Below, one piece after another: positions 13,819 through 54,586 of a stretch of DNA of 64,000 nt. The DNA lies in contig MFQZ01000008.1 of NCBI GenBank assembly GCA_001784435.1, forward strand, positions 23,347 to 87,346, given 5' to 3'. The notes beneath the pieces are model-generated. The model searched no databases and had not been told where the DNA came from. It saw nothing but the letters and a program-made list of their open reading frames with translations. Both the position numbers and the translations under genes were made by a program. Position 1 is the stretch's first letter, and each line of letters opens with the position of its first letter. Source of the stretch: Candidatus Magasanikbacteria bacterium RIFOXYC2_FULL_42_28 (GTDB lineage: Bacteria; Patescibacteriota; Patescibacteriia; Magasanikbacterales; GWA2-37-8).

Positions 13819-13822
13819 ACGC

Positions 13823-13990: not shown

Positions 13991-14063
13991 GGTGCCTATA
14001 GTGTAATGGTTAGCACGAGAGATTGTGGATCTCTCAGAATGGGTTCAAATCCCATTAGGCACC
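13991..14063 (+). tRNA. tRNA-His (anticodon GTG) with the extra 5' G(-1)
   Basis: G-1 pairs with C73; acceptor GTGCCTA/TAGGCAC; anticodon loop TTGTGGA; T-loop TTCAAAT. Confidence 0.8.
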
Positions 14064-18512: not shown

Positions 18513-19415
18513 ATGGCTATAACAAAACCTATAAAAGACAGGCTTACAGCTCTAAAAAGCGAATATGACACCCTCCGCAAAGGCAAGGAGTCTCTTTTGG
18601 TGATGATTGACGAGGCCGAAGTGCCAGAAAGCGTCTATAACTCCAACGCTATTGAAAACTCCACCCTTACCCTCAAGGAAACTGAGAAGATCCTTTTGGA
18701 TATGGAGGTCTCCCGTGATGTTTCGTTGCGTGAAGTTTATGAGGCCAAAAACTTGGCTCGAGTTATCGGCTACATTCGCAACAAGAGTAAAGAAACGGAA
18801 ACTAACAAAGAGACAATCTTACTTTTGCATCAAATGCTTATCGGTGGCATCGACGACAAAATTGCCGGTCGTTTTAGAAAGCTCGGAGAATACGTCCGTG
18901 TTGGGACCCACGTTGCCCCAGCACCGGAACATGTTGAGAAAATGATTGAGGCAATCATCACTGAATACACCGGCGACCTCTCAAATTATTTCTTAGACAA
19001 GATCGCTAAATTCCATTTGGATTTTGAAACCGTTCACCCTTTCAACGATGGCAACGGCCGTATTGGTCGCGTGCTCATTTGTTTTCAGCTTCAGCGTCTT
19101 GGCTTTCCGATAATCATCATTCGTGATCGTGAAAAGAAAGAATACTATAAGTCATTTGCCGAATACCGTGATGAAAAAAACGCCAAAAATATGGAAAAGG
19201 TTATCGCCTTGGCTTTGATGGAATCATTGAGTAAGAGGATTACTTATCTCAAAGGTCAAAAGGTTATCACTTTGTCCGAGTATACAAAATTAAACAAACT
19301 ATCTGCCCCGGGCATGATTAACGCCGCTCGCCGTCAAAATATTCCGGCTTTCCGAGAGAAAGGTGTTTGGAAAATCGGCGAGGATTTTATTTATAACTCT
19401 CGCAAAGAAAAATAA
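18513..19415 (+). CDS. Fic-family protein (AMPylator/Doc-like)
   Basis: canonical Fic motif HPFNDGNGRIGR; TTGACT-18-TATACT promoter at 18460-18489. Confidence 0.8.
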   Translation: MAITKPIKDRLTALKSEYDTLRKGKESLLVMIDEAEVPESVYNSNAIENSTLTLKETEKILLDMEVSRDVSLREVYEAKNLARVIGYIRNKSKETETNKETILLLHQMLIGGIDDKIAGRFRKLGEYVRVGTHVAPAPEHVEKMIEAIITEYTGDLSNYFLDKIAKFHLDFETVHPFNDGNGRIGRVLICFQLQRLGFPIIIIRDREKKEYYKSFAEYRDEKNAKNMEKVIALALMESLSKRITYLKGQKVITLSEYTKLNKLSAPGMINAARRQNIPAFREKGVWKIGEDFIYNSRKEK

Positions 19416-31114: not shown

Positions 31115-31843
31115 CTAACGCACATCGGACAGATAACCTTTTTGTTTACCGCTAAAATAATAACATAGAAATTGAAAAAAATATTCCCACAGCCCTTTAA
31201 ACACGCTCCCCTTAAACCGCCGACCGGAAAAAGCCACCGCCGGCGTCGGTAAAAAAACTATTTTACCCAATTTATTAAGACGAAAACCCAAGTCCAAATC
31301 TTCCATTGCCTGTAAATTCGGGTTAAACCCGCCCACGCACTCATAAGTTTCTTTATAAACGGCAAAACTAAACCCGGAGATAAAATAATTACCAAACAAG
31401 CGCCAATAAAACCAATTCCACTTTGGCCAAAACCAATTAAAAAACCGGCCGCGCCAATCTAACAAATCATTAATCATCACCGCTCCGGTTACCGCCGGGG
31501 CATTTGTTTTTTTAAGAGCACCAACCATTGCCTCCACCCAATTCGGTGGCGCGATCGTGTCGGCATCGGTTGATAAAATAATTTGGCCTTGGGCGCTGTT
31601 AAACCCAGCCGCCCGCGCCGCTCCTCGGCCTTGCTGATGTTCTGAAATAATACGCAAATTTAAACGCGACTGAAAGCGCGTGGCGACGGCGACAGTTTTG
31701 TCCGTAGAATTATTATCCACCACAATCACTTCAAAAATATAACCGGTTTTTTGCGCAACTAAAAATTCCAAACAGTCAGAAATTTTTTCTTCTTCATTAA
31801 AAGCGGGTATTACTACGGAAATTAAATTATTATCTGGATTCAT
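31115..31843 (-). CDS. family 2 glycosyltransferase
   Basis: VVIPAFNEE...VVDNNSTD...DAD motifs. Confidence 0.7.
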   Translation of the reverse strand: MNPDNNLISVVIPAFNEEEKISDCLEFLVAQKTGYIFEVIVVDNNSTDKTVAVATRFQSRLNLRIISEHQQGRGAARAAGFNSAQGQIILSTDADTIAPPNWVEAMVGALKKTNAPAVTGAVMINDLLDWRGRFFNWFWPKWNWFYWRLFGNYFISGFSFAVYKETYECVGGFNPNLQAMEDLDLGFRLNKLGKIVFLPTPAVAFSGRRFKGSVFKGLWEYFFQFLCYYFSGKQKGYLSDVR

Positions 31844-31922
31844 ACCATTTAAAAATCCTTCCCAAAAATATTTTCGGAAGGATTTTAAATTATCACAAAA
31901 CTACTGTTTGGGTAAATGACGA

Positions 31923-32423
31923 TTATCTCCTGAGCAAATTCACTTCACCAACCGGCACTCCGGAAGCATCGCTGTCATAAATCGGCGCTTTTTCCAAATC
32001 ATAGCGACGGATCTGACCATCCCAATAATCGGTATAATCACCTTTGGCCAATTTAATCGCGAATAGCGTGATGGAATAAGCGCTTAAAATTATCGCCAGT
32101 CCAATTACCGCTTGAGTTAAAAGCGATTTGGCTTTAGTTACCTGCTCATCGTTACCCCCGGCCGTCATCCACAAAAATCCGGCGTAAAGAGTAAACACAA
32201 AAAACAACATTCCCAAAAATTCCAAAGCCACGCGGATGATATTGGCGACAATTTGGCGGGGGTCTTTGACATCGGCCGGAGTATAGCCAGCGCCAGTGCC
32301 GGCCGCGCCCAATTGGCCCACGATATCCGGTCCGTCTAAAGCGCTCGCTTGGCGAGCGGAAAACAATCCTACACCCAACATAACAACCAACGCCGAGATA
32401 ATTAAAAATTTTGTAAATTTCAT
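31923..32423 (-). CDS. T4SS-pilin-like (TrbC/VirB2-like) two-TM protein, paralog 1
   Basis: signal peptide; core YAGFLWMTAGGNDEQVTKAKSLLTQAVIGLAIIL; variable N-domain. Confidence 0.6.
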   Translation of the reverse strand: MKFTKFLIISALVVMLGVGLFSARQASALDGPDIVGQLGAAGTGAGYTPADVKDPRQIVANIIRVALEFLGMLFFVFTLYAGFLWMTAGGNDEQVTKAKSLLTQAVIGLAIILSAYSITLFAIKLAKGDYTDYWDGQIRRYDLEKAPIYDSDASGVPVGEVNLLRR

Positions 32424-32429
32424 AAATTA

Positions 32430-33023
32430 TTAATCTACCGGCATGCAACAAGTGCCGGGTATTTCTTCTTGAGTTGCAGGATCAACTTGGCAACTGACAC
32501 CGCCAACCAAAGCATCAAACCAATCTACTATATCTCCAAAATCAGAATTGCTTTCCGGCTGATAGGCCTCTCCGCCTAATGCCGTGCAATTACTTTGGTG
32601 AGTTGTGCCACCGGCTGTTGTCCATCCCGCTGATGTGCCGGTAACACTCGTGAAACGCAAAGTGACAAAAAACGTAATACTGAAAGCCGCCAAGGCAATA
32701 ATCATACCAATAACCGATGCTTTTAAAATATTCACGGCTTTGGTAATCTGCTCATCGTTACCCCCGGCCGTCATCCACAAAAACCCGGCGTAAACAGCCA
32801 AAGCAAAAAATATCATGCCCACAAGCGACAATGTAACGCTAATAATATACCCAATCCCGCTGGATAGTTGATTGGCTTCGTTGCCGATTTCGTAACCGGA
32901 ACCTTTGGCCACCCCCTCCAATGTGTTTTGCCCAAAATCAACTGCGTTGGCATGATTCAATGCTGGCGCGCCTAAAAGCAAAATGCCGACAAAGATACTC
33001 ACCAAAATAAATTTAAGTCTCAT
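32430..33023 (-). CDS. T4SS-pilin-like protein, paralog 2, with a Cys-containing C-terminal tail
   Basis: core YAGFLWMTAGGNDEQITKAVNIL; shares a 47-nt near-identical DNA tract with paralog 1. Confidence 0.6.
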   Translation of the reverse strand: MRLKFILVSIFVGILLLGAPALNHANAVDFGQNTLEGVAKGSGYEIGNEANQLSSGIGYIISVTLSLVGMIFFALAVYAGFLWMTAGGNDEQITKAVNILKASVIGMIIALAAFSITFFVTLRFTSVTGTSAGWTTAGGTTHQSNCTALGGEAYQPESNSDFGDIVDWFDALVGGVSCQVDPATQEEIPGTCCMPVD

Positions 33024-33042
33024 AAATTTTATTATCTATTTG

Positions 33043-33540
33043 TTACTCTGGGCAACTTTCACCAGCACGCCAAACCCCATCGCCATTTGCACAATCAGCT
33101 TTGCTGATACCGCCCACAACTGTATCTATACATTCTTCCACACCATCGGCATCTGTTAACACGCACTTACCCCCCCCGCCACCCCCACCCACCAACCTAT
33201 TCGTCACAAACGCCGTAATCGCATATGCCAAAAATACAATTGTGATGCCGATTAAGGCCGCTTCCAAGGTGTCTTTGGCTTTAGTAACTTTTTCGTCATT
33301 GCCTTGAGCGGTCATCCAACGAATGCCGGCGTAAACCGTTAAGATGAAAAATACCGTGCCAATTAAAGCCAAAATCGTGTTGATTACTAAACCGGTGGTG
33401 CTTTCAAGATTAGGTGTCAAGCCGGTTTTTCCGCCGATTTGACTCAATTTTGTGCCAGCGTCATTAATTGTCAAAGCACTTACACTTAAAGGCACAAGTA
33501 AAACTGTGGCTAAAATGATAGTAAAAAAAATCTTACGCAT
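33043..33540 (-). CDS. T4SS-pilin-like protein, paralog 3, with poly-Gly linker and Cys-rich C-terminus
   Basis: core YAGIRWMTAQGNDEKVTKAKDTL. Confidence 0.6.
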   Translation of the reverse strand: MRKIFFTIILATVLLVPLSVSALTINDAGTKLSQIGGKTGLTPNLESTTGLVINTILALIGTVFFILTVYAGIRWMTAQGNDEKVTKAKDTLEAALIGITIVFLAYAITAFVTNRLVGGGGGGGKCVLTDADGVEECIDTVVGGISKADCANGDGVWRAGESCPE

Positions 33541-33552
33541 ATTTTAAAAAAA

Positions 33553-33933
33553 TTATTTCAAATTCAACGCGTTAAACACAAAGCGAGCAATGGCATAAGC
33601 GGCCAAAACTATTACCAAACCAATACTGGATGTTTCCAGCAATTCTTTCGCCTTGGTAACGCGCTCGCTATTGCCCAGGGCCGTCATCCACACGCCACCG
33701 GCGTATAAAGTCAAAACGAAAAATAACGCGCCGATAAGCGACAGGGCGATACCGACGATAGCGCCAATAAGGTCGATGACATTGGTGGCGTCGGCTACTT
33801 CTTGCGGTAATTTTGCTTCCTTGGCCGCTGTGCCTAAACCATATCCACCTGTGTAGGCCTCGGCCAAAACAAAAGTCGGGGCGAGCAGTAAAACACCGGC
33901 TAAAATTGTTAATGATATTTTTTTAAAAGACAT
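33553..33933 (-). CDS. T4SS-pilin-like protein, paralog 4 (minimal form)
   Basis: core YAGGVWMTALGNSERVTKAKELL. Confidence 0.6.
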   Translation of the reverse strand: MSFKKISLTILAGVLLLAPTFVLAEAYTGGYGLGTAAKEAKLPQEVADATNVIDLIGAIVGIALSLIGALFFVLTLYAGGVWMTALGNSERVTKAKELLETSSIGLVIVLAAYAIARFVFNALNLK

Positions 33934-33944
33934 AGTTTGATTAA

Positions 33945-34060
33945 TATCAAATTTCCAATGTCAAATGTCAAATCAATTTCAAAATCCAAATTTCAAAAAA
34001 CGATTTGACATTTAAATTTTGGATTTGATTGGAAATTGGAAATTTAGATTTTGACATTTC
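33945..34060. repeat. about 115-bp near-perfect AT-rich palindromic element of the GGAAATT family
   Basis: CAAATTTCCAATGTCAAATGTCAAATCAATTTCAAAATCCAAATTTC / GATTTGACATTTAAATTTTGGATTTGATTGGAAATTGGAAATTTAG; near-identical copy at 34588-34702. Confidence 0.7.
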
Positions 34061-34157
34061 ACTCAACCTATTTCCCGACAGGGGGTTGCGAGTTCGCCCA
34101 CAAACGCAACTGTTTAAAATTGCGAGCGAGCGCGCGAACCCCCTGCCGAAAAATATA

Positions 34158-34547
34158 CTACCCGGTAAACCCTGTTTTATCAACTAATTCTCCAACCACA
34201 AACTGCGCAATCGCGTAAGCGGACAAAATAATTGCGAGACCGATAATACCCGAGAATATCCATTTCTTGGCTTCGCCTACTTTTTCATCATTACCGCCGG
34301 CCGTCATCCAAGTAAAGCCGCCGATCAAAATAATGACGATGGCGACGATACCCAAAAAGCCGAGTACTACACTAATAATGTTACCAATAGTAGCGCGCAA
34401 ATCACCATCTCCCAAACCACTTGTTTTAGCAAAGCCCAGGCCCAAGTTCTCTTCTTGATCTGGCGTACTGCTTATAGCCAACACTGGCGTGGCAAACAAA
34501 GCCAAAGCCATCACGCCCAAAATTACTCCACTTAAAATCTTTTTCAT
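34158..34547 (-). CDS. T4SS-pilin-like protein, paralog 5
   Basis: core GGFTWMTAGGNDEKVGEAKKWI; strong SD (GGGGGTGAG) before the ATG. Confidence 0.6.
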   Translation of the reverse strand: MKKILSGVILGVMALALFATPVLAISSTPDQEENLGLGFAKTSGLGDGDLRATIGNIISVVLGFLGIVAIVIILIGGFTWMTAGGNDEKVGEAKKWIFSGIIGLAIILSAYAIAQFVVGELVDKTGFTG

Positions 34548-34587
34548 ATTCTCACCCCCTTTCGCAATTTTAATATCATATTATTAA

Positions 34588-34702
34588 TTTCAAATTTCCA
34601 ATGTCAAATGTCAAATCAATGTCAAAATCCAAATTTCAAAACGCGATTTGACATTTAAATTTTGGATTTGATTGGAAATTGGAAATTTGGATTTTGACAT
34701 TG
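34588..34702. repeat. palindromic GGAAATT-family element, copy nearly identical to 33945-34060
   Basis: seen directly. Confidence 0.7.
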
Positions 34703-34743
34703 CTAATATTATACCACATTTATTTTTTCGCCACAACTACAAA

Positions 34744-35556
34744 CTACTTTGGAAAATCACCCGTACCCAAATACGTCAAAACGCCATTTAAAAACAAATA
34801 ACTAAAAAACACGATGAACGCGCCCAAAGCCGCAAACGCCATCGTTTTCCCGCCGGCCTTAATTTTTTCCGGATTGCCGGCGGCCATGAGCCAGGCCTGC
34901 GCACCCCAAATAAACATCAAAAGCACGACCGCGCCGATTACGCCCAAAATGCCTTTAATTATTATACCGATAATAGTAGGGACGTCGGTAGTGCCACTGG
35001 CCAAGGGGTTGTCAAGACAAACCGAACCGGTTGGACAAGGTTCTTTTGTTTTTGAAGTATCAGGCGCTGACGCGGCGTCGGCGATTGGCGTTTCGGCAGG
35101 GGCGACAGTTGAACCAGGCACAACCGCTGTTTCCTCTAACTCTGCAGTGGCCAAATCAGGTGTCCAAATAGTAGTGACTGGGGCAGTTAAAGTTAGTTTG
35201 TCAGCCACAGTAACTTCACCCGAAATTGGCACTGTCACTACCGGCGGTATATTAAATTTCGCCATTAGTTCTTCCACTGTGCTAGATTCGTTTAATAACT
35301 CACAATCTGCTTGGAGATTTATTTCTTCCACATCAACATTGTTCCAAAAACAAGTTGCTTTTTCTGTAAGACCACCGGCATTATATGTTCCATGATATTG
35401 ACTACATGCAGATTCCAACGCGACACCTAATCCATAATCTATTTCCAATTCACCTGCAACTTCACAAACCCCCTCTGCCAATACCGGCGCCGCCGAAAAA
35501 AACAAAACAAAAAATGATAGTGGCACCAACAAAAAAGATAAGATAATTTTACGCAT
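34744..35556 (-). CDS. T4SS-pilin-like protein, paralog 6, with a long Cys-containing N-terminal ectodomain
   Basis: C-terminal core GAQAWLMAAGNPEKIKAGGKTM plus TM pair. Confidence 0.55.
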   Translation of the reverse strand: MRKIILSFLLVPLSFFVLFFSAAPVLAEGVCEVAGELEIDYGLGVALESACSQYHGTYNAGGLTEKATCFWNNVDVEEINLQADCELLNESSTVEELMAKFNIPPVVTVPISGEVTVADKLTLTAPVTTIWTPDLATAELEETAVVPGSTVAPAETPIADAASAPDTSKTKEPCPTGSVCLDNPLASGTTDVPTIIGIIIKGILGVIGAVVLLMFIWGAQAWLMAAGNPEKIKAGGKTMAFAALGAFIVFFSYLFLNGVLTYLGTGDFPK

Positions 35557-35560
35557 AAAT

Positions 35561-36529
35561 TTAAAACAAACTAAACAGCGAACGCACCAACCAATAAGCC
35601 GCCATTTGCACTATAATGGATAGCGTCGCCCAGAGCAAAATGTGTTTGGCTTTAGTTATTTGTTCGGCATTGCCTTGGGCGGTCATCCACAAAAAGCCGG
35701 CCCAGACATAAAACAAAAGTAAGAGCGAGCCAATTATGCCCATTAAAAAATAAATTACTTTACCGATAAATTCATTGACGCGACCGGTGGCCGTTGATTC
35801 TGTGAGCCATTTAAAAGGATTTAATTTTAATTTGGCGCTGGCTTGTAAACTTTTAAGATCGCCGGTTTTTAGGGTGGAGGTGATCGGATCGTGTTCGTAA
35901 GAAGCGCAGGTACCATCGGGACCCAAATCATTAACAATTGCGTCTTTTTCACAACCTATTACACAACTATTATCTTGTAATTTTTTAGGAGTTTCCACGC
36001 AACTGACTGATCCATCATCAACACTGCGCACACAACAACAATTGGGCTGTTCACCCTTAAAAAATTGGCATAGAATTCGGGGAGAAGCAAAATCATTAAT
36101 ATCTGTGGATGCCCCTCCCAATCTACCGACTCTATTAATTGGAGTAGTGATTTTAGTGCAAACGTCATTCAACATCGTCAAATTAAATTCCCAATCGGAT
36201 AAAAGACCATATAAACCGTTAACCTGTTTTAAATCTCCACTATATAATTTACTATTCTCGGTAAAAACTCCATAATAGATTGGCGCCACCCCAAACTTGT
36301 CCAAAATATTACCACCAAAACCACCGCCAGTAGAAAAATCAATAGAACAAACACAAGCACTTTTGTGTTGGCATTTATCGGAAAACAATTTGTCAAGTGC
36401 TGGCTCAGTTTTGGTAAAATTATTATGCAAAGTCCCGCCTGGCGTAATTTCGCCTGACGCAAAATCCGGCCCGATTGAAATTCCCAATAAAATGACAAAA
36501 ATAAAAACAGTAATTTTTTTCATAAACAT
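35561..36529 (-). CDS. T4SS-pilin-like protein, paralog 7, with a large Cys-rich N-terminal ectodomain (about 17 Cys)
   Basis: C-terminal core WAGFLWMTAQGNAEQITKAKHIL. Confidence 0.55.
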   Translation of the reverse strand: MFMKKITVFIFVILLGISIGPDFASGEITPGGTLHNNFTKTEPALDKLFSDKCQHKSACVCSIDFSTGGGFGGNILDKFGVAPIYYGVFTENSKLYSGDLKQVNGLYGLLSDWEFNLTMLNDVCTKITTPINRVGRLGGASTDINDFASPRILCQFFKGEQPNCCCVRSVDDGSVSCVETPKKLQDNSCVIGCEKDAIVNDLGPDGTCASYEHDPITSTLKTGDLKSLQASAKLKLNPFKWLTESTATGRVNEFIGKVIYFLMGIIGSLLLLFYVWAGFLWMTAQGNAEQITKAKHILLWATLSIIVQMAAYWLVRSLFSLF

Positions 36530-37213
36530 CTACTTTAACTTTAAACCAACACCCCCGAGCGACCCCACCCCTACCGCTTCGCTTAAAAATCCGACTAACA
36601 AATACGCGGAAAAAACCACGATTATGCCAATAATAGCCGCGAGCATGGCGTCGGTGCCTTTTTTAACGCGTTCGGGATTGCCTTCGGATATGATAAATAA
36701 AATTCCGCCGTAAATAAACATCAGGAGTGCGAGCGCGCCAATAATGCCAAATAGGTAATTGGCGATATTGATGCCGAGCAAAACAAAAATGCCAATATCG
36801 CGACAAGGCGAATCTTTGGGAAACTCATTGGCTAAAATACAAGCCGGTAAAAACGCGCTGGTATTGGCCTCAGTGCTGGAAACATCTTTGGTTAATTTGG
36901 TGCGGTGCGCGTCCCAGGTAATAAGAGCGTCTTTACAGCGTTGGTAGCCATCGTCAATACCACCGTCAAAAAATTTACAGCTGTCGAAGTCGTTAATATA
37001 CTCATAAGTTCCGGCCGTACTTTTACAGGCATCTTCATTGCTTGTAGTATTACATCCGCTATTTTTAGCATCTTTTAATTCTTCCGGAGTAACCCCGGTG
37101 TCTAAAGGTGAAGCGCAAAAACAATAACCACCCGCTTGGGCCGGAGTTGAAGTTAAAACCAAACCGGCGAAAGACAGGAGGGCGACTGATAAAATTATAA
37201 ATTTTTTGGACAT
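36530..37213 (-). CDS. T4SS-pilin-like protein, paralog 8, with a Cys-rich N-terminal ectodomain
   Basis: C-terminal core YGGILFIISEGNPERVKKGTDAM; start abuts the stop of paralog 7. Confidence 0.5.
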   Translation of the reverse strand: MSKKFIILSVALLSFAGLVLTSTPAQAGGYCFCASPLDTGVTPEELKDAKNSGCNTTSNEDACKSTAGTYEYINDFDSCKFFDGGIDDGYQRCKDALITWDAHRTKLTKDVSSTEANTSAFLPACILANEFPKDSPCRDIGIFVLLGINIANYLFGIIGALALLMFIYGGILFIISEGNPERVKKGTDAMLAAIIGIIVVFSAYLLVGFLSEAVGVGSLGGVGLKLK

Positions 37214-37224
37214 AAATTGTTATT

Positions 37225-38667
37225 TTATAACGTTTGGCCGACTTTGGCCACCGCGTTATTTAACACCCCTTGACGCGCTTCATCTTCTTTAGCAATCCCA
37301 GCCGGTATGGTGAGCCAATCATCTACCATATCACCCACGGCTTTGGCCGCGACCGAATAATTACTGCCCCGATACCAATTTTCGGCCATTAAAACCTGTT
37401 CTACAAACGGCGCCACTTTTAAGTCAGCCCGTTGCTCCTCGATATACGCGCGCAGTGCCGTCGGCCGACCGCTGGCATCTAAATAATCTTTGGTCGCTTT
37501 GGAATGAGCCAAATAATCTATCAAACCCCAGGCCTCATTTTGATGTTTGGATTTGGCGGTAACGGCCTGTAAATAATAATTAGCCACGTTCACCGGTTGA
37601 TCCGGATTTAATTGAAATAATGGTAATACGCCAATATTCAACTGGGGAGCGCGCGCTTTAATGGTCGGATAATCATAACTATATCCTACCATAAATCCAA
37701 CTTTTCCGCTAACAAACGCGTCCATGGCATTACCCATATTTTTATTCCAGCCATAAGTGTCACGCGTAGGATTGGCAAAATCAGTATAAAAATCTAACAC
37801 GCTAAACGAGGCGCTGTTGGCATCCGCGCGTCTGTCCCGCCCACTGCCAAATTGTAAACGACCAAAATTATCACTAAACGGCACGCCACTTTGGCGGAAT
37901 AAAACAAACAAAATATCATCAACCGCCGCGACATTTTTACCAGCGCCAAAAGCCACGCCCGATTGAGTGATTTTGTCGTTTACCCGATCATATTTATTAA
38001 TTTTTTTCACCGCGGCCTGAAATTCATCCCAATTTTTAGGCGCTTCCGGCACACCCGCGCGGTCCAATAAATCTTTGTTGTAATAAACAGCCAAAGTATC
38101 CAAAGACAGTGGCAAGCCATAAACCTTGTCGCCTATTACCGCGTCCTCTTTGACTACTTTTACATATTCGCGCTCCAATTGAGTCGGCGTTACGAGTGGT
38201 ATGGTGCCAACCTGAACGGTAGTTTCGTCGCCCCCCAGGGCGGTTTTGGTCGTAAGCAAACGCGCATCCGAGACACTGGCCGGCATCGGCGCGATTTTAC
38301 TCAAATACCCGCGCACCATCCGATTGGAAATAGAAATAATATCCGGACCTTTATCTTCGGCAAGAGCTTCAATCAATCGCTGATAAAATTCCGAAGCGCG
38401 CAATTGGCGAACATTAACAGTTAAGTAACTACGGCCATCCAATTTATATTTTTCAATATTAGTTTTAAGCGCGTCCACATCATCGGCCACAGTCCAATAT
38501 TCTAAAGTTAATGGTTTAACCAATTGTTGTTGATCGGCAGAGATGCCTTTACAGCCGAGACCAGAAGTAATTAGAAACGCAAAAATACCGCTTATAATAA
38601 GTAGGGGTAAAATTTTCTTATGCGACTTTGGCATAAATTTTAATGTCAAATTTCCAATCAAATCCAA
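37225..38667 (-). CDS. extracellular solute-binding protein (ABC sugar-type SBP family) with a lipoprotein-like N-terminus
   Basis: N-terminal TM/lipobox (SGLGC), 480 aa, SBP-family-1-like profile; call not verified. Confidence 0.45.
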   Translation of the reverse strand: MDLIGNLTLKFMPKSHKKILPLLIISGIFAFLITSGLGCKGISADQQQLVKPLTLEYWTVADDVDALKTNIEKYKLDGRSYLTVNVRQLRASEFYQRLIEALAEDKGPDIISISNRMVRGYLSKIAPMPASVSDARLLTTKTALGGDETTVQVGTIPLVTPTQLEREYVKVVKEDAVIGDKVYGLPLSLDTLAVYYNKDLLDRAGVPEAPKNWDEFQAAVKKINKYDRVNDKITQSGVAFGAGKNVAAVDDILFVLFRQSGVPFSDNFGRLQFGSGRDRRADANSASFSVLDFYTDFANPTRDTYGWNKNMGNAMDAFVSGKVGFMVGYSYDYPTIKARAPQLNIGVLPLFQLNPDQPVNVANYYLQAVTAKSKHQNEAWGLIDYLAHSKATKDYLDASGRPTALRAYIEEQRADLKVAPFVEQVLMAENWYRGSNYSVAAKAVGDMVDDWLTIPAGIAKEDEARQGVLNNAVAKVGQTL

Positions 38668-38745
38668 ATGTCAAATATCAAATTTTGACATTGTCCACCA
38701 CAGGCCGATCCGCCTTTGGCGGAGAAATTTGGATTTTGAAATTAC
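38643..38745. repeat. GGAAATT-family palindromic element with an inner CCGCCTTTGGCGG hairpin
   Basis: seen directly. Confidence 0.6.
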
Positions 38746-38750
38746 CAATA

Positions 38751-39611
38751 TTATACCACACTTTTCAAATATTTCCTAAAATCTTTTCCCAAAATCGGGC
38801 TACGGAGCGCAAAATCAACATTGGCCTGAATATAACCGAGCTTGGAACCGGTGTCATAATATTTACCATCTACTTCACAGGCGTAATAGGGGCGTTTTTT
38901 TAACACTTTGGCGTTAGCGTCAGCCAACCACAACTCCCCGCCTTTGCCCAATTTGGTAGTTTCTAAAGCAGTAAAAACATCCGGCGTTAAGATAAAGGCG
39001 CCAAACATACCAAGGCGTGAAGGTGATTTTTCTGGCCCGGGCTTTTCCACAATTTTTTTAACTTGATACACCCCTTTTTCCACTTCCACCCCATCAATCA
39101 TCCCATATTTTTTTGTGCCTTCATCATCGGTTTTTTGCGCGGTAATTACTGGATCGCCATATTTTTCATAAACATCCATTAATTGTTTTAGATGCGGTTT
39201 TTTAGGACAATAAAAAAATTCATCGCCCCACATAACCGCGAACGGCTCATCACCAATTATATCTTTGGCGCAGAGTACCGGTGTGCCGTTGCCATACGGC
39301 CCTTTTTGACGAATAAAAATAAAATTAGCGAGGTCGGCAATTTTTTTCAACTGTTCGGCCACCTCTTCTTTACCTTGTTTTTTTAATAAATTTACCAATT
39401 CATAATTTGGACTAAAATGATCTTCCACCGCGCGCTTACTGGGACCGGTTACCATAATAATGTCAGTGATTCCCGACCGCACCGCGTCTTCAACCACATA
39501 TTGAATAATCGGCTTGTCCACGATAGGGAGCATTTCTTTGGGTTGGGCCTTTGTTGCTGGCAAAAATCTTGTTCCTAAGCCAGCTACTGGAATGACAAGT
39601 TTTCTGATCAT
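38751..39611 (-). CDS. galU: UTP-glucose-1-phosphate uridylyltransferase
   Basis: VIPVAGLGTRFLPATKAQPKEMLPIVDKP signature. Confidence 0.85.
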   Translation of the reverse strand: MIRKLVIPVAGLGTRFLPATKAQPKEMLPIVDKPIIQYVVEDAVRSGITDIIMVTGPSKRAVEDHFSPNYELVNLLKKQGKEEVAEQLKKIADLANFIFIRQKGPYGNGTPVLCAKDIIGDEPFAVMWGDEFFYCPKKPHLKQLMDVYEKYGDPVITAQKTDDEGTKKYGMIDGVEVEKGVYQVKKIVEKPGPEKSPSRLGMFGAFILTPDVFTALETTKLGKGGELWLADANAKVLKKRPYYACEVDGKYYDTGSKLGYIQANVDFALRSPILGKDFRKYLKSVV

Positions 39612-39680
39612 AATTTTAAGTGATTATTTCATTGAAAATATTATAGCTTTTTTAACTTTATTTTACAAGAGAGAACTTTA

Positions 39681-39790
39681 ATTTCAAAATCCAAATTTCC
39701 AATTTCCAATCAAATCCAAAATCCTAATATCAAATTTGACATTTTGGCTTTGACATTGATTTGACATTGGAAATTGGAAATTTGACATTT
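39681..39790. repeat. GGAAATT-family palindromic element immediately upstream of the PilX-like gene
   Basis: seen directly. Confidence 0.6.
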
Positions 39791-41167
39791 TCACTCTATC
39801 TCTTCCCAACTCACCAAAAAATATTCCGACCCAACCGGAAAACCGGGGGGTGGATTTAGAGTTAAATTGGCATCGTAAGTGGCATAGGTATTTTTGTAAC
39901 CCGACACCACCGACCCGCCACCGGACACATAACTCCAAGTCCACAAATCATTGGAAATTATCGAACCATAAATAGTTAAACTTTCCCGTTTATTGCCCAT
40001 ATAAAAATATCGCTTGGCCGCGCCGGTTTGGGCGAGCATGGCCGCGTCCACTTCCAAGTAATTAGGCGCGATGTAGGGCAACAAAATATTTTTCTCAGCA
40101 ATCAATCCCAAAACATTAGTGCCGTCTTTCGCTAAATAAGTTAAATTATTGTTAATAACAATTGATTTGTCATCCGCCGTGCCGACCGTCGCCCGACCGT
40201 TGACAATCCCGTCCACCCATACCATATCTTCTACATATATATAGCCATTGGTCGGCATATCATATACCACTGCCGTGCCAAAAGTGGCGGCGTCAATGCA
40301 AAACCAGCCAAAGCGCGCGTGGCCATTGCCCCAATAATCTTGGCCGTAATAACAATCCGTGGTATTAACTTTGTAAATATTAATTTTGCCATCAGCGCGA
40401 AATTCCAGCCGATATCCTTGCTTACCGGACGATGTTAAATAAATACCATTAATTTCCGCCTCGCGTTTAATTTCGGCCAGTTTGGCGGTAACGCGCGAAA
40501 AATCTTGCGCCGGCACCGGAAATTCCCACAAACTCTCGTCGCCGTCGCCCCACACTCCGGGTTTTTCTTGATTACCGCAACCGTGATGTTGTTTACATAT
40601 ATAAGTAGGCACCGCCGAGGTAATGGGTGCGTTGCCAATGCCGTCAAAGCGCGCCCCGCCGTTAGCATGCAGTTTGCCGTTGGCGGTTTCGCTGTCGCCA
40701 ATCCAAATATCCACATTGGTAAGATACGCAAAATCCGTTAAAGCCGGAAACCCGACGCGCGCTTTTAAAGTGCGTTTGCTATCGGGCTGTAAATCCAACC
40801 AGCCGGTGGATTCAATCGTAACGACCGTGGAACCGCTTTGGGGTGGAATAATATTTAAAGAATAATGGCCGATGACATTGCCATCTTTATCTTCGTATTC
40901 GTGGATGTATGGCCCAACCGCGCCCGTGCCGTCTTGATAATCAGTTTTATCATGCGCCAAATGCCAGCGATAATAATTCACGCCCGCCTCGGCAATTTGA
41001 AAAGCCATTTCGCGATTATGTTTATGAACCGAAGCCCGATTTTCCAAAACCGCGTAACCGGTAACACCGACGACAATTAAACTAAAACTAATGGCGCCGA
41101 AGATGAGGGCAAAGAGTAATGCTGTTCCCCTTTTGTCAAATTTTAATTTTTTATAAATATTCAGCAT
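39791..41167 (-). CDS. PilX-like type IV pilus minor-pilin/assembly protein (large secreted protein)
   Basis: N-terminus KRGTALLFALIFGAISFSLIVVG resembles the PilX_N domain; 458 aa. Confidence 0.4.
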   Translation of the reverse strand: MLNIYKKLKFDKRGTALLFALIFGAISFSLIVVGVTGYAVLENRASVHKHNREMAFQIAEAGVNYYRWHLAHDKTDYQDGTGAVGPYIHEYEDKDGNVIGHYSLNIIPPQSGSTVVTIESTGWLDLQPDSKRTLKARVGFPALTDFAYLTNVDIWIGDSETANGKLHANGGARFDGIGNAPITSAVPTYICKQHHGCGNQEKPGVWGDGDESLWEFPVPAQDFSRVTAKLAEIKREAEINGIYLTSSGKQGYRLEFRADGKINIYKVNTTDCYYGQDYWGNGHARFGWFCIDAATFGTAVVYDMPTNGYIYVEDMVWVDGIVNGRATVGTADDKSIVINNNLTYLAKDGTNVLGLIAEKNILLPYIAPNYLEVDAAMLAQTGAAKRYFYMGNKRESLTIYGSIISNDLWTWSYVSGGGSVVSGYKNTYATYDANLTLNPPPGFPVGSEYFLVSWEEIE

Positions 41168-41289
41168 GCTAATAACTATTAATAATTCACTAAGTCCTAA
41201 TTCGCTAATTAACTAATCAAATACCAAAGTATTCAAGAATTGAAAATTTTATTAGCGAATTAGTTAATTAGTGAATTAGTTAATTTTCG

Positions 41290-41922
41290 TCAATTTGTCT
41301 TAAGATTTCTAATCGCCGCCTTGGTCTCAATCGCAAACGGCACCGGCGCCACATTAGGTTTTTCTTCTAATAATAAATTTATGCCAATCACCCGCACCAG
41401 CGCCGGATCAATCGGTGCTGACATCGGCGTGCCGGTCGCGCCGGTATAATCCTCATCATAATAATAAAACAGCGACGAGGTGGTATTGGCGACATCATGA
41501 ACAATATCAGTAACAGTTTCGCTCCCTAAATTATACGCGAGCGGTGTGCCGGTCGCTTTCACTATCCCCACTTTCAACGTCGTGCTCACCAAAAAATATC
41601 TAATCCTCTCCCGAAAAGAATCCGCGTCTAAATTGGAATAAAAAACCACCTCTTGGGCACCAGCCGACTCCAAACCATAACCGCCCGTGGCCGACTGCCC
41701 GGCGCGACGCAATTGATTAACAAAATCCTGCACCACCTTACGCCCTTCGTTTTGGGTGGACAACTGCTCCCACACCACATCGCGCCCCCGAAATCCCCAT
41801 ATAAAAATTTCCATCGTGCCCGCTGACACAATCAAAAAGATTCCAATCGCCACAAGGATTTCAATAATGGACATGCCGCGGGTATCAGTTTTGAATTTGG
41901 GATTTTGGATTTGATTTGACAT
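41290..41922 (-). CDS. prepilin-type N-terminal cleavage/methylation domain protein (pseudopilin)
   Basis: class III signal RG-MSIIEILVAIGIFLIV. Confidence 0.6.
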   Translation of the reverse strand: MSNQIQNPKFKTDTRGMSIIEILVAIGIFLIVSAGTMEIFIWGFRGRDVVWEQLSTQNEGRKVVQDFVNQLRRAGQSATGGYGLESAGAQEVVFYSNLDADSFRERIRYFLVSTTLKVGIVKATGTPLAYNLGSETVTDIVHDVANTTSSLFYYYDEDYTGATGTPMSAPIDPALVRVIGINLLLEEKPNVAPVPFAIETKAAIRNLKTN

Positions 41923-41945
41923 TGGAAATTTGGATTTTGAAATTA
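41887..41945. repeat. half-copy of a GGAAATT-family element, overlapping the 5' end of 41290-41922 and reaching the stop of 41943-43745
   Basis: GATTTGACATTGGAAATTTGGATTTTGAAATT. Confidence 0.5.
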
Positions 41946-43745
41946 CAACGTGGACATATTAACAAACGTATCCGCGTTCCCGACAACATCCACCTGACCG
42001 GCATTATTCGCATACCCCGAACGCGTTACCGTCACGGTATAAGAACTGGCGGATAAACCGCTAAAAAACGCCTGCCCGGGCGGGGTGCAACTATTAGTAT
42101 AGGTAATGGACAATTCGGATAAAATGGGGGTGTAGTTGTTGTTAGTAGTGCTTAAATACGCCTTATAGCGCAAATAACGCTTATCACTCAAAGAAGCCGG
42201 AATAGTGGGATTAGCAACCGTAAAATAGGTGCCGGCGGTGCCGTCCGGACCGACAAAACTCCAACTGGCCGGCGTGGAAGAATTGGAAGTGGCTAATTGA
42301 AATTTCAAAGAATTAGCGCCGGTTTGCGACGGCTGGGTCAAGGGGTTAATTACCAAATTGCGCAAAGTTATAGGCGCGCCAAAATCAAAAGTAGATGATT
42401 CTAAATTACCGCTAAGATAATATTTAGAACCATTCTTTTTTAATTTGACATTGCCGGCCGTGGCGCCGGACACATTAATCGTGCCACTATCGCTAAAATA
42501 TTTATTTTCAATTACATAAGCCACCTGTCCGGTTCCGCCCGACCAATCGGTCTGACGCAAGTAACCGACGCCCGTGGATAAGGTCTGATCATAACCGCCT
42601 CCGCCGGTCAAACGCACAGACGCGTCCGACAAGGGCAAACCGGTGCCGGAATCAAACACTTTTACCAATAAAGAATTAGCGCTATGCGGTTGTAAAATCG
42701 CGGTAACATCTTGCGTAGCGCCCGCGTGTAAAACAATCGGCAAGGGTGGAATCGTGCCAGCAATATCATAAACACCACTCGTGGCACTGATATGATAATC
42801 ATTAAATTCCAAATTATTCAAAGCAATACTGCCGGCGCCACCCGTTAAAAAATTTTGATTATATTTATAAACATCCGGATCAATACTCAACATTTTTTCA
42901 CTGCCGTACATATTAAAATTCGCGTTGCCGACCGCGACGCAGGTGGCGTTAACGGAATTAAAATTAATACTCCCCAATAAATCAATGGAAAAACTGATAT
43001 CAGTCACGGTTTGCTCATTAACATTAGACGGTGGTTTAACCGGAGCCGGTACCGCTGGCGAAGTCGCTACCGTATAATCAGAAGAATACCCGTCTTTGGA
43101 CACCGTAATATGATAAGCCAAAGTGCCGGTGGGAGTATCAATAATCCGCAAATAACCATTGGCATCAGTGGTGTCATCAATAATTAAATCCGGATTTAAA
43201 TCAGTATTAGCCACATGAACATCAGCCCCGGCCACGGGTAAACCATCTTCGCCAAACACCTCAATAAAAAGCGCGCCATTACTGCTCGCCCCTTCTAGTT
43301 GTCGCGGCGACACCATCGTACTTAATTTAATCGGCATGGCCTGACCGCAACCAAAACAAATTGCCGACATTTCCACTAATTTATAATCGGCCGGTGAAGT
43401 GTCATTCGGGCTACCGCCGATGGTACCGTCAAAAGCATCATCAATATTGCGCACCGTGGCCGTTATCAAAAAATCCAAATTATTACGTGTGACGGTTTTC
43501 GTGCGCGCCAGTGCCCCCACCGGCACACCGTTTAAAATACCAACACTTTCATATGGCAAATTGCGCGCCACTTCCAATTCTTCTGACAGTAAAGCCGTTT
43601 CCAAAATTTTAATGCGCGATTGATAAACAATTTTAAAAACCAGCGATAATCCGCTATAAATCCCAATCGCGAATAACAAAAATATGGCCGAGGCGACCAC
43701 GGCTTCCACGAGAGTGAATCCTTGGTGGGATTTTATTTTTGGCAT
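41943..43745 (-). CDS. large (600 aa) prepilin-type minor pilin / pilus-associated adhesin-like protein
   Basis: class III signal QG-FTLVEAVVASAIFLL, then a long beta-rich Thr/Ser/Gly-rich domain. Confidence 0.55.
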   Translation of the reverse strand: MPKIKSHQGFTLVEAVVASAIFLLFAIGIYSGLSLVFKIVYQSRIKILETALLSEELEVARNLPYESVGILNGVPVGALARTKTVTRNNLDFLITATVRNIDDAFDGTIGGSPNDTSPADYKLVEMSAICFGCGQAMPIKLSTMVSPRQLEGASSNGALFIEVFGEDGLPVAGADVHVANTDLNPDLIIDDTTDANGYLRIIDTPTGTLAYHITVSKDGYSSDYTVATSPAVPAPVKPPSNVNEQTVTDISFSIDLLGSINFNSVNATCVAVGNANFNMYGSEKMLSIDPDVYKYNQNFLTGGAGSIALNNLEFNDYHISATSGVYDIAGTIPPLPIVLHAGATQDVTAILQPHSANSLLVKVFDSGTGLPLSDASVRLTGGGGYDQTLSTGVGYLRQTDWSGGTGQVAYVIENKYFSDSGTINVSGATAGNVKLKKNGSKYYLSGNLESSTFDFGAPITLRNLVINPLTQPSQTGANSLKFQLATSNSSTPASWSFVGPDGTAGTYFTVANPTIPASLSDKRYLRYKAYLSTTNNNYTPILSELSITYTNSCTPPGQAFFSGLSASSYTVTVTRSGYANNAGQVDVVGNADTFVNMSTL

Positions 43746-43933: not shown

Positions 43934-44242
43934 TTAAACAATCCTAATGCCGGTCTTTTTAATCTCATTAACCATCGGATTGTTTTTATCGTTAAAATCA
44001 GCGACGGTGAAACCGTGGGGTTCAATTCGCCCATCCACATTACTACCGGCCATCCACAGGGCGGAACTATTTTCAAACCGACGTAACTTATCAGAAAATA
44101 TCGCCACATCAATATCACTAAATTTATTAGCCAAACCTTTGGCGGTGGAACCAAACCAAAAAATACTGGCAAACGGAAAATTGCTTTTTTTTAATTCGGC
44201 CGCGTAAGAACAAACAATTTTTTTTACTTTATCTTTTGACAT
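43934..44242 (-). CDS. nucleotidyltransferase (MNT) component of a HEPN/MNT toxin-antitoxin pair
   Basis: GSTAKGLANKFSDIDVAIF (GS...SDxD polymerase-beta-type NTase motif). Confidence 0.65.
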   Translation of the reverse strand: MSKDKVKKIVCSYAAELKKSNFPFASIFWFGSTAKGLANKFSDIDVAIFSDKLRRFENSSALWMAGSNVDGRIEPHGFTVADFNDKNNPMVNEIKKTGIRIV

Positions 44243-44613
44243 AACTGGTTGTATAATTTTTTGATTTTACCGTGGTATTTTTTGGTAAATTCCCCGGTGC
44301 ATTTTTTGTAAAAATCCAATTTGTATTCCGGGTATCTGGTACGGATATTAAACTCGTTTACCTGCCCTAAAAAAATCATCAAATCGTCATCACTTTCTAA
44401 TTTAGCCAATTCATAAAGCCGAATTAAATTGTGAATATAAGGCGCGTCTTTTTTGGTTTCTTGCACCACGAGCGCCTTTAAAATTTTCTCCAAAACAATG
44501 TGGCCAAAAAACAAACAAGCCGAATAACGTTTACTTCGATATAACGCCAGCATCGTATCATAATCATGCTCGGCAGTTTTAACCCAATATTTTACTAGTC
44601 CTTTTTTGTCCAT
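44224..44613 (-). CDS. HEPN-domain protein, partner of the MNT gene (19-nt overlap)
   Basis: classical HEPN helix pattern (YRSKRYSACLFFGHIVLEKILKALVV). Confidence 0.6.
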   Translation of the reverse strand: MDKKGLVKYWVKTAEHDYDTMLALYRSKRYSACLFFGHIVLEKILKALVVQETKKDAPYIHNLIRLYELAKLESDDDLMIFLGQVNEFNIRTRYPEYKLDFYKKCTGEFTKKYHGKIKKLYNQLCQKIK

Positions 44614-44638
44614 AGTTGTCCAAATTATTTTTTCACCA

Positions 44639-44890
44639 TTATAATAACTCCATAAATTTCCCCATCAACTTATCTCCGCCAACCGTTTTCAATTCTTTAA
44701 TAATTTGATGCTGTACTTTTAATTCATTGTGCCTCGGAATCATTATAAACGGCCGATGTCCGGCTGGAATTAAATAATTTTTTGGAAAAGCATATTTATC
44801 ATGACTACCGGTGCGATCATTGTTTAAATAAAAACCTAATTTTTTAAGCGCAAATACGCACTGCCGTTTGTTGAAATTATAGTCCCCCAT
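44639..44890 (-). CDS. hicA: HicA-family mRNA interferase toxin
   Basis: ALKKLGFYLNNDRTGSHDKYAF (HicA/YcfA signature). Confidence 0.55.
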   Translation of the reverse strand: MGDYNFNKRQCVFALKKLGFYLNNDRTGSHDKYAFPKNYLIPAGHRPFIMIPRHNELKVQHQIIKELKTVGGDKLMGKFMELL

Positions 44891-44902
44891 ATCTATAATT
44901 TT

Positions 44903-45244
44903 TTAAGTGGGCTGGGTTTGCAATTGTGCTTCGTAACGAATTACTTCGTTATTGGCCATTCTAAATTCATTGAAAATAAAATCCGACTCTCTTTTCGGCA
45001 CCCCAAAATAAGTAAGTACGGCATCGTTTACCATATCCAACAATTCTTTCTTTGACTGGGCTTGAGTGAAAATACCCGACAAATCTTTGCATTCGGCTAC
45101 AAACCAACCGTCCGGAGTAATCTCCACAGTCCAATCTAATCGATCGGGAATACCATATTTTTGTTTGATAAAGACCGGATCTTTTTGAACGACAAAATAC
45201 CGATAAGCCCGATTAAACGTTTGTTGTATTTTTGCGGTAAGCAT
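44903..45244 (-). CDS. hicB: HicB-family antitoxin
   Basis: DGWFVAECKDLSGIFTQAQSKKELLDMVNDAVLTYF matches the HicB N-terminal domain. Confidence 0.55.
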   Translation of the reverse strand: MLTAKIQQTFNRAYRYFVVQKDPVFIKQKYGIPDRLDWTVEITPDGWFVAECKDLSGIFTQAQSKKELLDMVNDAVLTYFGVPKRESDFIFNEFRMANNEVIRYEAQLQTQPT

Positions 45245-53530: not shown

Positions 53531-54586
53531 CTAACCAACCACATAAGAAGTCGACTTGCCCTTGCCGGTCGCCTTAATCATTTTAAGTTTTTTTAATTTT
53601 TGCAATTGCAACTGCGCTGATCGACGCGGACAAGATAAAATATCTTCCGCATCGGCAACGGTAATCCGGCCGACCTGATCCAAGAAATCAATAATTTTTA
53701 ACTGTTCCGGCGAAAGATAAATTTGTGATTTTATTTTACCAGCAACATTACGAGCGGACAATGGCAACACCTTACTCTTCACCTCATCAATTTCCGCTTT
53801 AAATCCTTTTACAAAATATTCCAACCAAGAAGTGAGGTCAGTACGCCTGGCTTCATAAGTTTTACCTAAATTAATCGCTTTATAATATGACGATCGGTCG
53901 GTATTATAATAATCCTCCAAGGCAAACAATCGCCGAAAGTCATACCCGCGCTGATAAAGTATTAAGGTCGCCAAAGCGCGCGCGGTACGCCCATTACCAT
54001 CGTTAAATGGATGAATAGCGGCAAGCTCCATATGAGCAACGGCCGCCACAATCACCGGGCTTATTTCCTTCTCCTCACTGTCTTTAATCCAAGTAACAAA
54101 TTCTGCCATAAGTTGCGGTACTCGCTTTGCCTCCGGCCCGGTATATAAAATTTCTTGTGGCATGCCCAAACGCCGACGCACCACATAAATCGGGCCGGGA
54201 CGATAATGGCCGGAAAACTGTGAATTTAATGTTTTATCAGTCACTAATTTATGCATTTTTAAAATCACTTTTTCCGTTATTAGCTGTTTTTCGGCCACTA
54301 TTTTTTCAATAAATTTCAAAACATTTAAATAATTTTTTACTTCATAAATATCTCGATCCGGCGCGTCAATTTTCTTGTTAGCATAAAGCGCCTCCACCTG
54401 CACCATATTCAGTTGGTTCCCTTCAATTTCAGTGGAATGATGGGTCATACGGATAATCGCTTGCCGGCGTAATTTTATTTCTTGTTGCGGTAAAATTTTA
54501 GCACGATCAATAATGCCTTTGGCTTCGGCGATAGCAGTAAGGTCGCTCAAAATCTTGTCGGTATATTTAAATATTGGAGTAAACAT
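53531..54586 (-). CDS. Fic-family protein with a C-terminal wHTH
   Basis: Fic motif HPFNDGNGRTAR. Confidence 0.75.
   Translation of the reverse strand: MFTPIFKYTDKILSDLTAIAEAKGIIDRAKILPQQEIKLRRQAIIRMTHHSTEIEGNQLNMVQVEALYANKKIDAPDRDIYEVKNYLNVLKFIEKIVAEKQLITEKVILKMHKLVTDKTLNSQFSGHYRPGPIYVVRRRLGMPQEILYTGPEAKRVPQLMAEFVTWIKDSEEKEISPVIVAAVAHMELAAIHPFNDGNGRTARALATLILYQRGYDFRRLFALEDYYNTDRSSYYKAINLGKTYEARRTDLTSWLEYFVKGFKAEIDEVKSKVLPLSARNVAGKIKSQIYLSPEQLKIIDFLDQVGRITVADAEDILSCPRRSAQLQLQKLKKLKMIKATGKGKSTSYVVG

Follow-up and report, generated by a model that had tools for sequence, protein, structure and literature searches.

Tandem arrays of VirB2-like pilin genes have been described in Patescibacteria. 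A search of 3,035 patescibacterial genomes with the Pfam families PF18895 (T4SS_pilin) and PF04956 (TrbC/VirB2) was reported to yield 441 arrays of 2-11 pilin genes in 383 assemblies, with a mean identity of 25% and a maximum of 54%, many of them located away from virB4 (Quinonero-Coronel 2025, PMC12102498). A predicted pilin series, a six-gene array in Southlakia epibionticum's type IV secretion system (T4SS) cluster, was reported to be essential (Wang 2023, PMC10633639), and four to six small proteins with Sec signals are encoded beside the T4SS of Saccharibacteria, as in the "Sec-secreted array" of TM7x (McLean 2020, PMC7427843). According to a 2025 review, these are the sole T4SSs of monoderm bacteria with potential pili (PMC12857230). 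Here we analyze nine paralogous genes in a 64-kb stretch of DNA (the window) from Candidatus Magasanikbacteria RIFOXYC2_FULL_42_28, an ultrasmall groundwater bacterium of the Patescibacteria, class ABY1, whose assembly, GCA_001784435.1, was among those searched in PMC12102498. Eight of the genes are adjacent (31923-37213) and the ninth stands apart (12860-13663), all on the minus strand. We find that they form a new member of the published array type, with regularities across relatives that give concrete predictions.

The locus fits the published definition of such an array, at least two PF18895 or PF04956 genes in tandem or one non-pilin gene apart in a patescibacterial genome with VirB4; VirB4 is marked "Yes" for this assembly in Table S1 of PMC12102498. 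It shares with the described arrays tandem chromosomal genes of the PF18895/PF04956 type, Sec signals, VirB4 in the genome and divergent paralogs, with cores 19-53% identical here compared with the published mean of 25% and maximum of 54%. The window itself is chromosomal, encoding 23S and 5S rRNA, tRNAs, PNPase, S15, RecA and FtsK. The array differs in lying neither within nor beside the T4SS cluster, having as its neighbours genes for a solute-binding protein (SBP), GalU and the minor pilins of a type IV pilus (T4P) on one side and for tRNAs, S15, NYN and PNPase on the other; in belonging to class ABY1, whereas PMC12102498 highlights Microgenomatia and Saccharimonadia; and in having relatives that reach about 15-16 genes, compared with the reported 2-11. 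Thus, the kind of locus is already known, and this one is a well-preserved example of it rather than a new system.

We numbered the contiguous genes g1 to g8 by rising coordinate, with transcription running from g8 to g1, and called the distant ninth gene g9. The open reading frames (ORFs), with products of 126 to 322 amino acids (aa), are as given in the sequence-only reading that preceded this analysis. The first array gene, g8 (36530-37213, 227 aa), carries an N-terminal ectodomain of about 120 aa with 8 Cys; g7 (35561-36529, 322 aa) has an N-terminal ectodomain of about 220 aa with 12 Cys, and g6 (34744-35556, 270 aa) one with 6 Cys. Two minimal forms follow, g5 (34158-34547, 129 aa) and g4 (33553-33933, 126 aa). 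Downstream of them, g3 (33043-33540, 165 aa) has a Gly-linker and a C-terminal 4-Cys ectodomain, g2 (32430-33023, 197 aa) a C-terminal 4-Cys ectodomain, and g1 (31923-32423, 166 aa), with which the contiguous block ends, a short C-terminal tail that lacks Cys. The product of g9 (267 aa, with an alternative TTG start at 13720) ends in a 136-aa C-terminal ectodomain with 12 Cys. From g1 to g8 the intergenic gaps are 6, 19, 12, 224, 196, 4 and 0 nt. The gaps of 0-19 nt imply co-transcription, and each of the two long ones, already described as repeat-filled, holds a palindromic element of about 120 nt, the two copies being 96% identical.

PF18895 is the top family for all nine proteins, and seven of the eight array genes score above its gathering threshold of 26.6 bits (27.5-49.3 bits: g8 49.3, g5 37.1, g7 34.5, g3 33.8, g1 31.1, g4 28.3 and g6 27.5). 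The exception, g2, lies just under it (26.1 bits) and has a core 51% identical to those of g1 and g3. The ninth gene is also below the threshold (17.5 bits, E 0.0045), and genes at the g9 position of close relatives pass it at 26.8-32.5 bits. A hidden Markov model (HMM) of the nine cores picks out these nine ORFs and no others in the window. Identity among the ungapped cores of 72 aa is 19-53% (mean 35%), far beyond chance, and full-length identity to g1 is 21-41%. The only residues invariant across the nine are a Gly in helix 1 and the loop's G-N-x-E, and the longer motif proposed earlier fits g1-g5 and g7 no more than loosely. None of the nine matches a PHROG phage family at E ≤0.01 and no holin family appears in the Pfam output, leaving no sign of an unrelated membrane-protein family of that sort. 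When PDB sequences were searched with the core profile, the sole matches were designed "Pizza" and armadillo repeat proteins, each stretch scoring about 4 bits, and we rejected these as spurious. The assignment to the T4SS_pilin family is therefore upheld, and by profile similarity the nine proteins belong in PF18895.

Placement in the wider VirB2 superfamily can be made with moderate confidence. Using hhalign, the g5 family was compared with authentic VirB2/TrbC sequences gathered by tblastn, giving a moderate match (probability 58.6%, E 9.6e-5) over 57 collinear columns that span the first transmembrane (TM) segment, the loop and the second TM segment, with a loop 8 residues longer in the g5 family. 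In addition, several g5 orthologs have precomputed PF04956 matches. The likeness to VirB2, TrbC and TraA of Gram-negative T4SSs (PF04956; T-, P- and F-pili) consists of a signal peptide, two helices, a short loop, weak collinear similarity and, as we propose below, membrane insertion before assembly. In contrast to those pilins, the proteins here have sub-cut-off scores, a longer loop with an invariant G-N-x-E and a monoderm host; they are nine paralogs rather than one, bear large ectodomains at either terminus, and are encoded neither beside virB3/virB4 nor on a plasmid. A second comparison is with Mbov_0395/MMCAP2_0565 of Mycoplasma integrative and conjugative elements (ICEs), NCBIfam family NF045849, which are likewise small two-TM proteins of a monoderm conjugation system but are single-copy and located in an ICE, whereas the proteins here score below the 40-bit cut-off of that family and have no ICE context.

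Each of the nine proteins starts with a Sec signal peptide of the AXA type, read from the sequence, followed by two hydrophobic segments in hydropathy plots, in agreement with the signal peptide and two-TM core recognized earlier. An AlphaFold2 (AF2) model of g5 consists of the signal helix and a two-helix hairpin (residues 50-82 and 87-124; pLDDT ~96) joined by the AGGN turn. As had also been noted, the ectodomains are attached at either end of this core, N-terminally in g6-g8 and C-terminally in g2, g3 and g9. They are Cys-even, near-orphan sequences. From g1 to g9 the proteins contain 0, 4, 4, 0, 0, 6, 12, 8 and 12 Cys, always an even number, and no Cys falls within a core; the 322-aa protein, previously credited with about 17 Cys, has 12. 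Among 560 family members, 114 of the 125 C-terminal parts that contain Cys do so in even number. An exhaustive phmmer search of 1.84 billion representative proteins found a single partial relative of the g7 ectodomain, and word-indexed searches found almost nothing; its AF2 model, built from an 11-sequence alignment, is mostly beta at low confidence (pLDDT 56).

We then examined how the array is organized in other genomes. A scan with four closer cores, taking one genome per species, gave 79 loci, mostly from Magasanikbacteria and other Patescibacteria. Arrays of 5-15 adjacent family genes are the usual form in these relatives, with a median longest uninterrupted run of 7 and a run of at least 5 in 57 of 77 loci. 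In dozens of species the same order recurs: T4P minor pilins, GalU, SBP, g8 through g1 in descending order, tRNA-His, tRNA-Arg, a g9-like gene, S15, NYN, PNPase and tRNA-Leu. This shared order indicates that the array is ancient and positionally orthologous. As to the copy-number and order variation that had been proposed for checking, array size varies among relatives and the order is conserved across dozens of species. The architecture of the genes is polar as well, with N-terminal ectodomains upstream, a minimal g5 in the middle and C-terminal ectodomains downstream. At the g8, g7 and g6 positions, N-terminal extensions are found in 59%, 81% and 43% of orthologs and C-terminal ones in 15%, 7% and 2%, whereas at the g4, g3, g2, g1 and g9 positions C-terminal extensions are found in 68%, 39%, 34%, 29% and 86% and N-terminal ones in 0-2%. 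Among the loci that show the array together with S15-NYN-PNPase synteny at 65-85% identity, six and about 30 others come from GTDB-representative metagenome-assembled genomes (TPA_asm records) titled "uncultured Gammaproteobacteria bacterium", names that look like placeholders or mislabels.

This order also accounts for the ninth gene, which is not a stray paralog. Its positional orthologs sit between tRNA-Arg and S15, and the tRNA-Arg(TCT) and tRNA-His(GTG) genes that separate g1 from g9 in relatives are present here too (13746-14066, plus strand). The distance from g1 to tRNA-His is about 17.9 kb here, compared with about 50-70 nt in two relatives, and most of it is occupied by an integrative defence island recognized from Pfam content (14055 to ~31000, the right end being approximate). 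Thus, g9 is the ancestral locus's own terminal member and was moved away from g1-g8 by an insertion. The island begins with a large serine recombinase gene that abuts the 3' end of tRNA-His and also encodes a helix-turn-helix (HTH) protein, DUF5659, Fic, a YgjP-like metallopeptidase, a Dcm methylase, a GHKL (HATPase_c_3) protein and a type I restriction-modification system made up of HsdM, Hypoth_Ymh, HsdS and HsdR. No att-type direct repeat of the tRNA-His 3' end of at least 12 nt was found at the far side of the island, which is compatible with a serine recombinase. The Fic gene of the island (18513-19415) is one of two separate Fic/DOC-domain genes in the window; the other (53531-54586) lies near an AbiEii toxin gene (55810-56523).

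Cores and ectodomains evolve at different rates. Between positional orthologs the cores are 42-71% identical, whereas the non-core mature parts are 12-33% identical and vary several-fold in length at a given position. We estimated dN/dS (omega) from close pairs among the relatives because the only other contig of the same population in the scan, an independent assembly, is 100% identical over 20.4 kb. The gene-wide values are 0.03-0.14 for cores and 0.10-0.40 for ectodomains and other non-core parts; the orthologs that diverge fastest are left out of these estimates, and synonymous sites are saturated in several of the pairs. The difference between core and ectodomain that had been proposed as a check is therefore present, with ectodomains evolving 3-5 times faster than cores yet remaining constrained, which indicates purifying rather than diversifying selection.

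One member of the set stands out. The core of g5 is 71% identical to its positional orthologs, compared with 42-58% for the other members, and N- and C-terminal extensions occur in only 0% and 3% of g5 orthologs. Long gaps in the arrays of relatives only flank g5 (medians of 73 nt and about 90-117 nt, versus 2-11 nt elsewhere). In the window, the best sigma-70-like match of the region (TTGACA-16-AATAAT, 34607-34580) lies just upstream of g5, within an AT-rich palindromic element detected with nhmmer (34575-34710, minus strand; repeat 34585-34703) whose RNA has a predicted folding energy of -32.1 kcal/mol (z -3.3). Directly 3' of g5 is a GC-rich stem-loop (34066-34160, minus strand; -51.7 kcal/mol, z -7.4), a candidate terminator or mRNA stabilizer. 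This feature is conserved, since the 110 nt after g5 orthologs fold with a median of -38.1 kcal/mol compared with -17 to -20 after other array genes (n=46 loci). High conservation, a promoter-like site and a 3' hairpin are as expected of a major subunit, a role that we propose for g5.

The palindromic element was also considered as a conserved regulatory site common to the T4P and pilin genes, and this idea was rejected, as nhmmer found the repeat to be species-specific and absent from all 79 related loci. A second copy, 96% identical, lies upstream of g4 (33935-34065, minus strand; repeat 33942-34060) and holds a promoter-like TTGACA-17-GATATT (33971-33943). The repeat is AT-rich, with arms of about 57 nt containing TTGACA and GGAAATT units, and of the eleven arms present in the window, ten fall in intergenic spacers of the pilin/T4P cluster. 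The sites are 13824-13967, 33942-34060, 34585-34703, 38635-38682, 39679-39790, 41890-41946 and 62226-62282, and the arms create promoter-like sites upstream of g5, g4 and GalU. At 41890-41946 the repeat codes for a T4P minor pilin's leader, and at 62226-62282 it is in frame within a P-type ATPase ORF; such in-frame copies recall the in-frame insertions of Rickettsia palindromic elements.

Our combined findings lead us to propose that the array encodes a conserved, largely co-transcribed set of nine VirB2-like paralogs, with g5 as the major and the others as eight minor subunits of a VirB4-assembled surface filament or stalk for host contact. We give this proposal an even chance of being correct. 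Each protein would be exported by Sec and its AXA-type signal peptide removed, leaving a helical hairpin in the cytoplasmic membrane with both ends outside and the short loop, W-M-T-A-x-G-N-x-E-x-x-T-K-A-K, facing the cytoplasm. A domain on either terminus would then end up extracellular, where an even number of Cys could form disulfides. Having both termini outside the cytoplasm would explain why ectodomains are found at either end and why all have a disulfide-type composition. In the F-pilus structure of Costa and colleagues from 2016, both termini reportedly lie on the outer pilus surface. Conjugative pilins have likewise been described as two-TM proteins that, once the signal peptide has been removed, reside first in the membrane; some are cyclized head to tail, so that their termini are adjacent, and basic loop residues together with lipid head groups line the pilus lumen (PMC6362355). 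The g5 protein, with its own promoter-like site and conserved stable 3' hairpin, would be the abundant major subunit, and the other eight would be subunits of lower abundance, decorating or capping the structure with ectodomains that are lineage-specific and rich in disulfides. VirB4-containing T4SS machinery encoded elsewhere in the genome would pull the subunits from the membrane and assemble them, and the product may be a short filament or stalk at the cell surface that serves contact or exchange with a host cell. The earlier reading set such filaments apart from a conjugation pilus, a distinction that we do not adopt; the genome does encode VirB4 elsewhere. Since order and per-position architecture are the same across species and the gaps are tight, a fixed multi-subunit set fits better than alternative cassettes.

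Directly upstream of the array, in a position conserved among relatives, lies an orphan SBP gene (37225-38667, minus strand; Pfam SBP_bac_1/8) whose product has an N-terminal membrane or lipid anchor. It has no nearby ABC permease or ATPase and is found in 45 of the 55 relative loci with at least 5 pilin genes. In twelve loci from more distant lineages it is located inside the array, between pilin-like genes, which suggests a joint function with the array. Next come a GalU-like nucleotidyltransferase (38751-39611, minus strand; Pfam NTP_transferase), syntenic in relatives, and three T4P minor-pilin genes (39791-43745, minus strand; Pfam PilX_N, 458 aa, and N_methyl, 210 and 600 aa), syntenic with the array in 25 of the 55 loci. 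The N_methyl motif genes are at 41290-43745, and these neighbours carry the class III prepilin leaders G|FTLVE and G|MSIIE. Downstream of g1 is a family-2 glycosyltransferase (GT2; 31115-31843, minus strand; Pfam), found at the same position in only two of the relative loci. Together with the array these genes make up the 12.6-kb run on one strand (31115-43745) that had been pointed out earlier. Two toxin-antitoxin-like pairs (43934-45244), a nucleotidyltransferase with HEPN and HicA with a partner, separate the T4P minor-pilin genes from the gene that follows.

Elsewhere in the window, a membrane-anchored DsbA-like oxidoreductase with a CPYC motif (Pfam DSBA/Thioredoxin_4) and a multi-TM protein with a CASC motif are encoded side by side (59373-60863, minus strand). 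The CASC protein has no Pfam match and may be a DsbB/VKOR-type partner. It is plausible that the pair forms disulfides outside the cytoplasm and could do so for the Cys-rich ectodomains. A gene of the deoxyhypusine synthase family (PF01916; 8156-9256), unusual in a bacterium, adjoins transaldolase and tRNA-Leu genes and may encode a homospermidine-synthase-like enzyme.

Several observations weigh against a VirB4-assembled filament. The scores for PF04956 and NF045849 are below the cut-offs: the HMM check proposed earlier holds for PF18895 in seven of eight array genes but not for PF04956, whose gathering score of 27.9 bits is reached by none of the nine, the best being g5 (23.8 bits, E 5e-5), with g8 at 13.2 bits. 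NF045849 (Mbov_0395 pilin-like) is the best NCBIfam match of all nine, again below its cut-off, with g5 at 37.6 and the others at 15-28 bits. Fold searches could not separate the hairpin from thousands of generic hairpins and were uninformative because the fold is a plain hairpin. Searching 72,556 plasmids by tblastn revealed no g5 relatives at the BLAST level. In agreement with the earlier statement that VirB4 and VirD4 are missing, Pfam searches over essentially all ORFs of at least 100 aa in the window found no VirB4, VirD4 or VirB6, and no T4SS genes were found within ±10 kb of 55 related array loci, so that the connection between the array and VirB4 consists of the presence of VirB4 somewhere in the genome. 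The evidence for a g5 promoter and hairpin is made up of pattern matches and folding energies. Relatives also have ectodomains of 500-2,200 aa joined to this core, and these could not fill every position of a packed helical filament. Finally, a T4SS pilus has been observed in no Patescibacterium, according to the 2025 review (PMC12857230).

Such large proteins constitute a second class of PF18895 members in the relatives. They are single genes that join an N-terminal pilin-like core to Big_5, TIG or Big_7 immunoglobulin (Ig)-like domains, are 660-697 aa long with one of 2,266 aa, and were seen in ten loci (for example L029:9809-11839 and L037:4921-13891). The proteins of about 690 aa were tried as a pointer to a T4SS locus and set aside, their genes instead being conserved neighbours of those for signal peptidase I and HisRS (histidyl-tRNA synthetase).

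These proteins favour the main rival explanation, namely that the PF18895 hairpin is a mere two-TM anchor displaying variable disulfide-rich or Ig-like ectodomains as adhesins or receptors, without a filament and without need of a T4SS. We consider this possible though doubtful. It is consistent with the Ig-like ectodomains (660-2,266 aa) encoded beside signal peptidase I and HisRS rather than T4SS genes, with the array never being near virB4 in this lineage, with an orphan anchored SBP within or beside arrays, and with fold searches that return generic hairpins only. Simple display, however, leaves unexplained the minimal, ectodomain-free g4 and g5, the top conservation of g5 and the invariant G-N-x-E of the predicted cytoplasmic loop. 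Nor does it explain the homology to VirB2/TrbC or the presence of equivalent arrays inside an essential Saccharibacteria T4SS cluster.

The sequence-only reading had favoured a repertoire of interchangeable subunits, and antigenic variation would be a related view, with one or a few paralogs used at a time for host matching or evasion. PMC12102498 raises the analogy with Bartonella and Anaplasma phagocytophilum, host-dependent bacteria whose virulence T4SSs likewise have several diverged VirB2 copies in tandem. The divergence of the cores within the array (19-53% identical), near-orphan ectodomains of several-fold variable length per position and array sizes of about 5 to 16 genes among relatives are in keeping with such a repertoire, and the two 96%-identical palindromes that bracket g5 could in principle mediate rearrangement. 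However, whereas the Bartonella and Anaplasma copies are read as antigenic or host-range variants, the features found here point to a fixed set: order and per-position architecture are kept across species, gaps of 0-19 nt imply joint transcription, and an ectodomain omega of 0.10-0.40 reveals no gene-wide diversifying selection. Moreover, the palindrome is absent from all relatives, the independent assembly of the same population is 100% identical, and no invertase or switch adjoins the array. We therefore abandon interchangeability as the leading idea and regard it as very unlikely.

Less probable still is that the proteins are Sec-exported T4SS cargo, effector or toxin subunits, an idea put forward for the TM7x array, with pertussis toxin as the analogue, when such arrays were first described (McLean 2020, PMC7427843). 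All nine do have Sec signal peptides, but two strongly hydrophobic helices remain after the signal peptide, as expected of integral membrane hairpins and not of soluble subunits, and the homology is to pilins and not to toxin subunits; we see cargo as highly improbable. That they are accessory subunits of the neighbouring type IV pilus, a notion prompted by the co-directional PilX_N and N_methyl minor-pilin genes syntenic in 25 of 55 loci, is hardly credible, given AXA Sec signals instead of the class III leaders of those neighbours, no N_methyl match in Pfam for any of the nine, and a two-TM hairpin unlike the single N-terminal helix of T4P pilins.

Returning to the proposed nine-subunit filament or stalk, a more speculative version would sever it from the T4SS altogether. 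In Magasanikbacteria and related ABY1 lineages the array might be a self-contained surface organelle, composed of a g5 filament or stalk and eight minor subunits in fixed positions that present modular, disulfide-rich, lineage-specific ectodomains at either terminus, with the SBP capturing host-derived molecules. This would be a heteropolymeric "decorated VirB2 pilus" without a described counterpart, in which the equivalence of the VirB2 termini is put to use as a display scaffold. We think that this version is unlikely as it stands.

Descriptively, we think that four aspects are new: the ectodomain fusions with their N-to-C polarity, deep positional orthology in class ABY1, the expression signature of g5 with its hairpin, and the embedded SBP. 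They are unmentioned in the searched passages of PMC12102498, PMC10633639 and PMC7427843.

Few gene sets have been shown to be essential for a cultivated Patescibacterium's epibiotic life, and VirB2-like arrays are among them. The comparative regularities reported here, a conserved minimal g5, a fixed ordered set, a position-typical ectodomain end and fast-evolving yet constrained ectodomains, sharpen the tests that can be made of what such arrays do. If the filament is real, no pilus of a monoderm T4SS would precede it, and its decoration would consist of swappable binding domains. If there is no filament, the VirB2 hairpin would have been re-used as a general membrane anchor of surface proteins. 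Either outcome is relevant to the way in which ultrasmall bacteria attach to their hosts and feed on them.

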